Positions 28,671 through 28,876 of a stretch of 29,860 nucleotides of DNA are shown here, in pieces. The stretch's first letter is position 1; each line of letters opens with the position of its first letter. The notes under the pieces were generated by a model. That model was not told the DNA's origin and did no database searches. It worked only from the letters and a program-made list of their open reading frames with translations. A program made the position numbers and the translations under genes. The stretch comes from a virus (lineage: Duplodnaviria > Heunggongvirae > Uroviricota > Caudoviricetes), in the IMG/VR virus record IMGVR_UViG_2703718820_000019; one strand, given 5' to 3'.

Positions 28671-28731
28671 AGAAAATCCTTAATAAACATTTGGTTGAGT
28701 AAAATTCATACCTCCAAAAAGAGGAAAAATA

Positions 28732-28754
28732 AAGCCCCATGTGCTTAGGGGCTT
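28732..28754 (-). terminator. Hairpin (AAGCCCC...GGGGCTT) with a minus-strand U-tract; candidate att-core-associated structure at the right prophage end
   Basis: Stem 28732-28738 / 28748-28754 with a 9-nt loop, preceded on the plus strand by GAGGAAAAATAA. The motif AAAAATAAAGCCCC...GTG...AGGG resembles the P2 attP core as I remember it (AAAAAATAAGCCCGTGTAAGGGAGATT). Cannot be confirmed without attL. Confidence 0.3.
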
Positions 28755-28849
28755 TCAGTAGTCGATGTGGACGCTATGTGGACAGTGTTTGATATAAATC
28801 CATTTATATCATCAGGTTAGGTGCATTTTTGTGACACCATCCCTGTCTT

Positions 28850-28876
28850 CCCCCACATGCTGTGGGGGTTTTTTTT
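28850..28876 (+). terminator. Strong Rho-independent terminator upstream of fieF
   Basis: Perfect 8-bp stem CCCCCACA (28850-28857) / TGTGGGGG (28861-28868), 3-nt loop, followed by eight T residues (28869-28876). Confidence 0.7.

Follow-up and report, generated by a model that had tools for sequence, protein, structure and literature searches.

The right end of a P2-like prophage is very probably a WPhi-type attR whose 47-bp core is the 3' part of the CpxQ gene

The closest described systems to the prophage end presented here are, on the phage side, the attachment sites of the P2-like phages WPhi and P2 and, on the host side, CpxQ, the Hfq-dependent sRNA derived from the cpxP 3' UTR and studied by Chao & Vogel (2016) and Grabowicz et al. 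(2016). For WPhi, attB corresponds to MG1655 coordinate 4104392, and the same core is found in phage L-413C (PMC3448106). In the E. coli W genome paper, a prophage is entered as 'cpxP-fieF Wphi1 (P2)' beside P2-type prophages at 'rybB ncRNA' and 'cyaR RNA' (PMC3032704), and prophages between cpxP and fieF are listed in further papers too. Integration into the 3' end of an RNA gene, with a replacement copy brought in by the element, has been described for 186 in tRNA-Ile, for Fels-2 and SopEPhi in ssrA, and for P2-type elements at rybB and cyaR (PMC3448106, PMC3032704). In the P2 RefSeq record (NC_001895), attP is laid out in the order ogr terminator, Int P arm, IHF site, core, Cox site and Int P' arm, and the arm-type Int sites follow the consensus tgTGGaCa (PMC3448106). 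As for the host gene, CpxQ is an RNA of ~60 nt that RNase E releases from the cpxP 3' UTR, of which it represents almost the entire length, and that ends at the terminator (PMC9438474, PMC4817254). Its 5' end acts as a seed (PMC6755755), and it has two known seeds, which pair with G-rich motifs (PMC7213987).

The DNA analysed here (29,860 nt, IMG/VR virus record IMGVR_UViG_2703718820_000019; hereafter the window) is delimited at its left by the stop codon of an integrase gene on the minus strand (1-981) and at its right by the fieF stop codon (29860). Its integrase is identical to that of WPhi (CAB54522) at 325/326 residues and 52% identical to that of P2, and it also matches PHROG integrase families. 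We are highly confident that the right end of the window is the known attR of a WPhi-type P2-like prophage, with a 47-bp core that corresponds to the 3' part of the CpxQ gene including its terminator (Table 1). The integration site itself is already published, and the only addition made here is the overlap between the core and CpxQ, which is an annotation-level point and not a new kind of system. No statement that the WPhi core is the 3' part of CpxQ was found in the searchable literature; the name CpxQ reportedly dates from 2016, later than the work on the att site.

Table 1. Features at both ends of the window, with positions counted from its first letter.
Feature	Position	Strand	Basis
int, WPhi-type tyrosine integrase	1-981	-	window begins exactly at the int stop codon
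ogr, late-gene activator, last conserved phage gene before attR	27999-28217	+	annotated ogrK at the matching position in related genomes
Hairpin after ogr, terminator-like on both strands	28227-28252	.	-21 kcal/mol, z -5.05
133-aa cargo ORF (moron) between ogr and P arm, no part of the att site	28269-28670	-	absent from WPhi and most lysogens
Terminator-like hairpin right of the cargo ORF, T-rich tail CTTTATTTTT	28731-28755	-	fold and terminator scan
P arm of attR (phage DNA)	28761-28832	+	aligns with WPhi attP and the annotated P2 P arm
Two arm-type Int sites ATGTGGAC	28765-28772 and 28776-28783	+	11 bp start to start; P2 'protein_bind Int, P arm' aligns
AT-rich palindrome (28790-28811) overlapping IHF-like site TATCATCAGGTTA (28807-28819)	28790-28819	+	
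47-bp att core (O): cpxQ nt 15-58 plus 3 bp; direct repeat common to attL, attR, attP and attB	28833-28879	+	sequence comparisons
Rho-independent cpxP/CpxQ terminator, inside the core, between prophage and fieF	28850-28876	+	terminator scan, fold
Polymorphic terminator-loop base	28860	+	C in window and K-12; A in every attP and attL examined
Host DNA: fieF upstream region, then fieF (28958-29860)	28880-29860	+	100% K-12 identity and annotation

Megablast of positions 28200-29100 against 5426 complete E. coli genomes revealed three types of match, starting at 28833 (K-12 and most others), starting at about 28747-28761 (other lysogens), or covering the entire query (44 genomes only). A direct comparison with the K-12 cpxR-cpxP-fieF-pfkA region (L001) produced a single alignment, in which 28833-29860 is 100% identical to L001 1501-2528 over 1028 bp, and no cpxP or cpxR sequence was detected anywhere in the window. 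As fieF follows directly after the site and cpxP lies on its far side in all related lysogens, the prophage is located between cpxP and fieF. Since the attL of this prophage is upstream of position 1, the direct repeat was read on seven close relatives, the lysogens AVS0578, E. coli W, O55:H7 DEC5E, 19AR0254, 30821_1#335, O157:H7 Z1834 and strain 5735, which were followed end to end. At the left end, all seven run from the cpxP stop codon through 23 nt into the core, and from there into the P' arm and int (cpxP stop, TAAACCCTGTTTTCCTTGCCATA, GACACCATCCCTGTCTTCCCCCACATGATGTGGGGGTTTTTTTTATC, then P'-arm DNA and int). At the right end, all seven run from ogr through the P arm and the identical 47 bp into CTCAATTTGCC...fieF. 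In the genomes of the free phages WPhi (AJ245959, AY135739) and GMS190, a Yersinia phage, the core sits between sequence like that at 28761-28832 and the P' arm with int. The core in the window is identical to attP of WPhi and GMS190 at 46/47 positions and to K-12 attB at 47/47, with base 28860 as the sole difference, and it is by these repeat relations among lysogens, free phages and K-12 that attP, attB, attL and attR with a 47-bp core are defined.

A previous sequence-only reading of the same DNA had set the prophage end between ogr (28217) and fieF (28958), had seen no cpxP coding sequence upstream, and had proposed integration at the cpxP 3' end. These proposals are borne out by the start of K-12 identity at 28833, by the absence of cpxP from the window, and by the presence of cpxP plus core at attL in 7/7 related lysogens. 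Moreover, the direct repeat that it expected attL to share with 28700-28880 was found as the 47-bp repeat, shown on the related lysogens. The prophage boundary thus belongs in annotation at 28833-28879. The closest 25-kb match to the window has 97.8% identity, and the exact 99-nt attR of the window was present in none of the 5426 E. coli genomes; its unseen attL would be expected to carry loop base A and a P' arm with TGTGGACactATGTGGAC.

The terminator inside the core is formed by CCCCCACA-TGC-TGTGGGGG at 28850-28868, followed by a run of eight T at 28869-28876. A 40-aa ORF (28821-28943) was dismissed, as it reads straight through this terminator. We take K-12 cpxQ to be 58 nt long and to end at the T tract (L001 1487-1544), which sets the start of the core at its nt 15; Chao and Vogel are said to have given its length in 2016 as about 58 nt. 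With this length, 28833-28876 equals the last 44 nt of K-12 cpxQ, terminator included, at 44/44 positions, and the preceding 28819-28832, which is phage DNA, matches its first 14 nt at 3/14. The junction between phage and cpxQ sequence, at 28832/28833, reads GCATTTTTGT|GACACC. Judged by its sequence, the attR copy is a 5'-truncated, phage-fused cpxQ, the 14-nt 5' seed of which has been replaced by P-arm DNA. Neither the cpxP stop codon that stands directly upstream of the true CpxQ gene nor the full length of ~58 nt is present in the window, and an intact cpxP-cpxQ is found at attL in the related lysogens, a side that for the window precedes position 1. The earlier assignment of 28819-28876 to CpxQ is consequently right for its last 44 nt and wrong for its first 14, and the alignment anticipated between 28819-28957 and the K-12 cpxP-fieF region with cpxQ runs from 28833 through fieF and leaves out 28819-28832.

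Searches with Rfam at gathering thresholds gave no match in the window, and no family was found to match the sense strand of CpxQ or to match the locus under the name CpxQ. Independent support for the truncation came from the opposite strand, where RF02628 (Hrs1) scored 28.2 bits, with 30 model positions skipped, compared with 41.4 bits over its full length in K-12. The Hrs1 matches were located at 28832-28876 (-) of the window, at L001 1472-1544 (-) of K-12, and at L032 586-659 (+) and L031 4969-5042 (-); two Erwinia genomes exceeded the gathering score, with 64.7 and 58 bits. RF02628 appears to model CpxQ in reverse orientation.

The attR copy would not be an active sRNA. An alternative is that the attR/attP module is expressed as a chimeric sRNA, in which a phage 5' end would be joined to the second seed of CpxQ, rich in C/U, and to the terminator that binds Hfq. 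It would arise by read-through from ogr or the late operon and, in lysogens or during infection, would imitate CpxQ or act as a sponge that takes up Hfq and the targets of CpxQ; we consider this very unlikely. Every WPhi-type phage and lysogen would carry such a module with an exchanged 5' part. Whereas the predicted fold keeps both a single-stranded AUCCCUGUCUU stretch and the terminator, and the seed of CpxQ other than its 5' end would fall inside the core, the 14 nt in which the two sequences differ are fully explained as P-arm DNA that binds or spaces recombination proteins. Read-through would be favoured by the weak T tract of the ogr terminator in the cargo-bearing variant (GGGGCTTTCAACTTTG), but a strong hairpin stands after ogr, and no sigma-70-like promoter was found in 28100-29100, where 2.1 would be expected; the transcript from which RNase E releases CpxQ itself is induced by CpxR. 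Although the site is present in 785/5426 genomes, such an RNA is not reported in the literature searched. What points to a role of this kind is sequence retention, and we give it little credence; if true, by read-through and RNase E trimming, the phage would control a variant or decoy of an envelope-stress sRNA. Under our preferred interpretation of the locus as a plain attR, the terminator upstream of fieF is to be annotated as a duplicated piece of cpxQ and not as a second sRNA gene, and pipelines that recognise CpxQ from its 3' end would score the gene twice in ~15% of E. coli genomes.

To the left of the core, the P arm (Table 1) showed no similarity to K-12 in the direct comparison. Its two copies of ATGTGGAC constitute the only tandem pair in the window, both match the arm-site consensus, and in the alignment with P2 they correspond to GTCGATGTGG..TGTGGAC. 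They are followed by a palindrome, ATATAAAT-cc-ATTTATAT at 28792-28809, that extends to 10-bp arms (28790-28811) and is conserved in every WPhi-type attP and attR examined but one, in which one base is changed; palindromes with arms of at least 8 bp number 9 in the window against 2.35 in shuffles. The overlapping TATCATCAGGTTA has one mismatch to WATCAANNNNTTR; no second match of this quality occurs in 28700-28900, and the background rate is 0.7 per kb. As the ATAAATCC.TTTAT of the P arm aligns within the annotated IHF site of P2, the palindrome is taken as part of an AT-rich, IHF-homologous stretch, and 28790-28819 probably serves the P arm as a bend site for IHF. The P arm is also polymorphic at 28824, a position 9 bp before the core that reads A in GTGCATTTTT of the window and GMS190 and T in GTGCTTTTTT of WPhi; A at 28824 combined with C at 28860 occurs in 0/785 attR sites of the collection.

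In WPhi and most lysogens, a single hairpin separates ogr from the P arm, and the window prophage, GMS190 and 44/5426 E. coli genomes have ~510 bp extra at this place, consisting of the 133-aa ORF with a hairpin on each side. The hairpin next to ogr is homologous to the one annotated in P2 as 'rho-independent terminator for ogr transcript and F operon', and it can end both ogr on the plus strand and the cargo ORF on the minus strand. The ORF belongs to phrog_3807 (function not assigned) and has a hydrophobic, signal-peptide-like N-terminus; no Pfam match was obtained for it. This slot between ogr and the P arm holds variable cargo, as strain 5735 has a different ORF of 213 aa there (L014 2159-2800). 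Acquisition of the cargo ORF by imprecise excision was rejected, as the ORF lies on the ogr side of the P arm rather than past the core. The hairpin on its right has a stem of AAAGCCCC (28731-28738) and GGGGCTTT (28748-28755) around a 9-nt loop, and folds at -12.3 kcal/mol (z -2.1) on the plus strand and at -13.5 kcal/mol (z -3.1) on the minus strand, with the scan calling it terminator-like on the minus strand only. It corresponds to the int-facing side of the single hairpin between ogr and int in WPhi. In the circular phage it may end leftward transcription from int across attP. The 133-aa ORF and its hairpins are to be annotated as phage cargo.

The hairpin, the palindrome and the terminator had all been noticed in the sequence-only reading, at or within a few bases of the positions given here, and their roles in it were different. 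According to that reading, the core lay at or near a hairpin at 28722-28754 or the palindrome at 28792-28809, and 28819-28876 was a complete, intact CpxQ, a layout that now looks highly improbable. The resemblance of the hairpin to the P2 core AAAAAATAAGCCCGTGTAAGGGAGATT to which it pointed can be measured: the local alignment score of 11 is the top value among 1704 window tiles (three tiles reach 11), with 19 matches in 26 columns and three gaps, but both sequences have an A tract followed by a GC hairpin. Nevertheless, as an att core the hairpin was rejected, because the free phage GMS190 also contains it, on the left side of its P arm, and phage DNA continues for a further 78 bp beyond it. 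Likewise, the palindrome is found in free phage genomes and, as P-arm DNA in the stretch homologous to the P2 IHF site, is not a core feature. Homology to the P arms of WPhi, GMS190 and P2 runs through 28761-28832, to the right of both features, and the integrase is of the WPhi type, with merely 52% identity to that of P2, which also argues against a P2-like core. The terminator and the overall size do suit CpxQ, yet host identity begins only at 28833 and the 14 nt before it agree with CpxQ at the 3/14 positions given above. The strong terminator proposed at 28850-28876, for its part, is confirmed as that of cpxP/CpxQ, and it lies within the core itself.

The terminator loop allowed us to follow the two partners through recombination. 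Among the 4591 empty attB sites, 3227 are exact to a 99-nt query with loop base A and 908 to the query with loop base C, and A is found in 22/22 species-representative genomes with the exact core. No exact attL-type match with loop C was detected among 339 sites with one P'-arm variant and 528 with the other, each of the best attL matches listed being one base off the C query. At attR, by contrast, at least 152/785 sites are exact with loop C. The same genomes appear in the attL and attR lists, and strain 5735, which was read directly, has A at attL and C at attR. This allele pattern is observed; since the loop base always stays with the right-hand partner, strand exchange probably takes place within the core to the left of 28860, in 28833-28859, where the exact cleavage positions would lie. 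The pattern is also compatible with a loop base that forms the far right edge of the overlap region, provided that heteroduplexes are invariably resolved in the same direction. At least 152 lysogens express a cpxQ in which the phage has replaced the loop base C by A, which is probably neutral, as A is the majority allele. That the 47-bp repeat arose through homologous recombination, or as a target duplication of another mobile element, and is no integrase core, has nothing in its favour except the existence of a direct repeat and can practically be discounted, given that the same 47 bp stand beside int and between Int arm sites in free phage genomes, that the layout parallels the annotated P2 attP, and that attL and attR differ in their alleles as expected of a fixed exchange point.

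The phage attP contains 47 bp that copy the host sequence GACACCATCCCTGTCTTCCCCCACATG(A)TGTGGGGGTTTTTTTTATC, namely CpxQ nt 15-58 with the terminator plus 3 bp. In the mechanism that we propose for site-specific integration, the WPhi integrase would bind the two P-arm sites (28765-28783), two P'-arm sites that lie outside the window, and the core, with IHF probably bending the AT-rich 28790-28819. Integration would then rebuild a complete cpxP-cpxQ at attL, with its 5' part from the host and its terminator loop and 3' half from the phage, and would leave at attR a copy in which P-arm DNA takes the place of the first 14 nt, including the 5' seed. The terminator of this attR copy may in turn separate rightward transcription of ogr and the late prophage genes from fieF, as an insulator.

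Of the 5426 complete E. coli genomes, 4591 (85%) have an empty site, 785 (14.5%) carry attR and 790 carry this integrase type. In representatives of many genera of Enterobacterales, CpxQ is identical over its entire sequence, the 14 nt as well as the 47-bp core (22 species-representative loci with the exact core, L018-L039). The exact core, always after the same 14 nt of CpxQ, is found in Escherichia species, Salmonella diarizonae, Citrobacter, Enterobacter and Yokenella, and again after these 14 nt in Kluyvera, Pluralibacter, Erwinia, Edwardsiella and Entomohabitans. In about 9/22 of the representative loci the right flank begins with AAT.ACTTA, resembling the P' arm, which suggests, as far as flanking sequence can tell, that diverse integrative elements use the same point. 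Conservation of the CpxQ sequence would explain such wide sharing of the site.

Two further observations were made in the collection. E. coli ECCWS199 contains a prophage remnant of ~1.9 kb with both att sites (L017, NZ_CP032237 4512372-4514337), in the order attL, int, truncated C gene, ogr and attR, which can be compared with the ogrK-D' remnant that K-12 has at a different P2 site. In addition, coordinate 1 of many 'complete' E. coli assemblies falls at the gpA gene of this prophage (replication endonuclease; ~3515 in the window), and matches to these rotated records start at position 1347/1348. Such starts are probably artificial and due to software that makes a replication-initiator gene the beginning of the record.

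We compared the locus with the known systems to which it is related. With WPhi it shares the integrase, 46/47 positions of the core, the P-arm sites and the chromosomal position, and it differs from WPhi in the 133-aa cargo ORF with its flanking hairpins, in the A/T difference at 28824, and in an attR with the K-12-type C at 28860. The attP of P2 has the same order of parts, a homologous P arm (GTCGATGTGG..TGTGGAC..ATAAATCC.TTTAT) and a common arm-site consensus; however, its core is unrelated (27 bp versus 47 bp, alignment score 4), its host site is another one, and its integrase is the 52% identical one described above. With respect to CpxQ, identity extends to the last 44 nt (28833-28876), whereas cpxP is missing upstream of the window copy and the 5' 14 nt with the 5' seed are replaced. 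Finally, as in the elements that target RNA genes, the attP carries the 3' part of the gene, so that the gene is made whole again at attL while a partial copy remains at attR, but here the target is an sRNA processed from an mRNA 3' UTR and not a tRNA, a tmRNA or a stand-alone sRNA gene. The WPhi-type prophage thus joins the phages that integrate at the 3' ends of conserved RNA genes and bring a replacement copy of their own.
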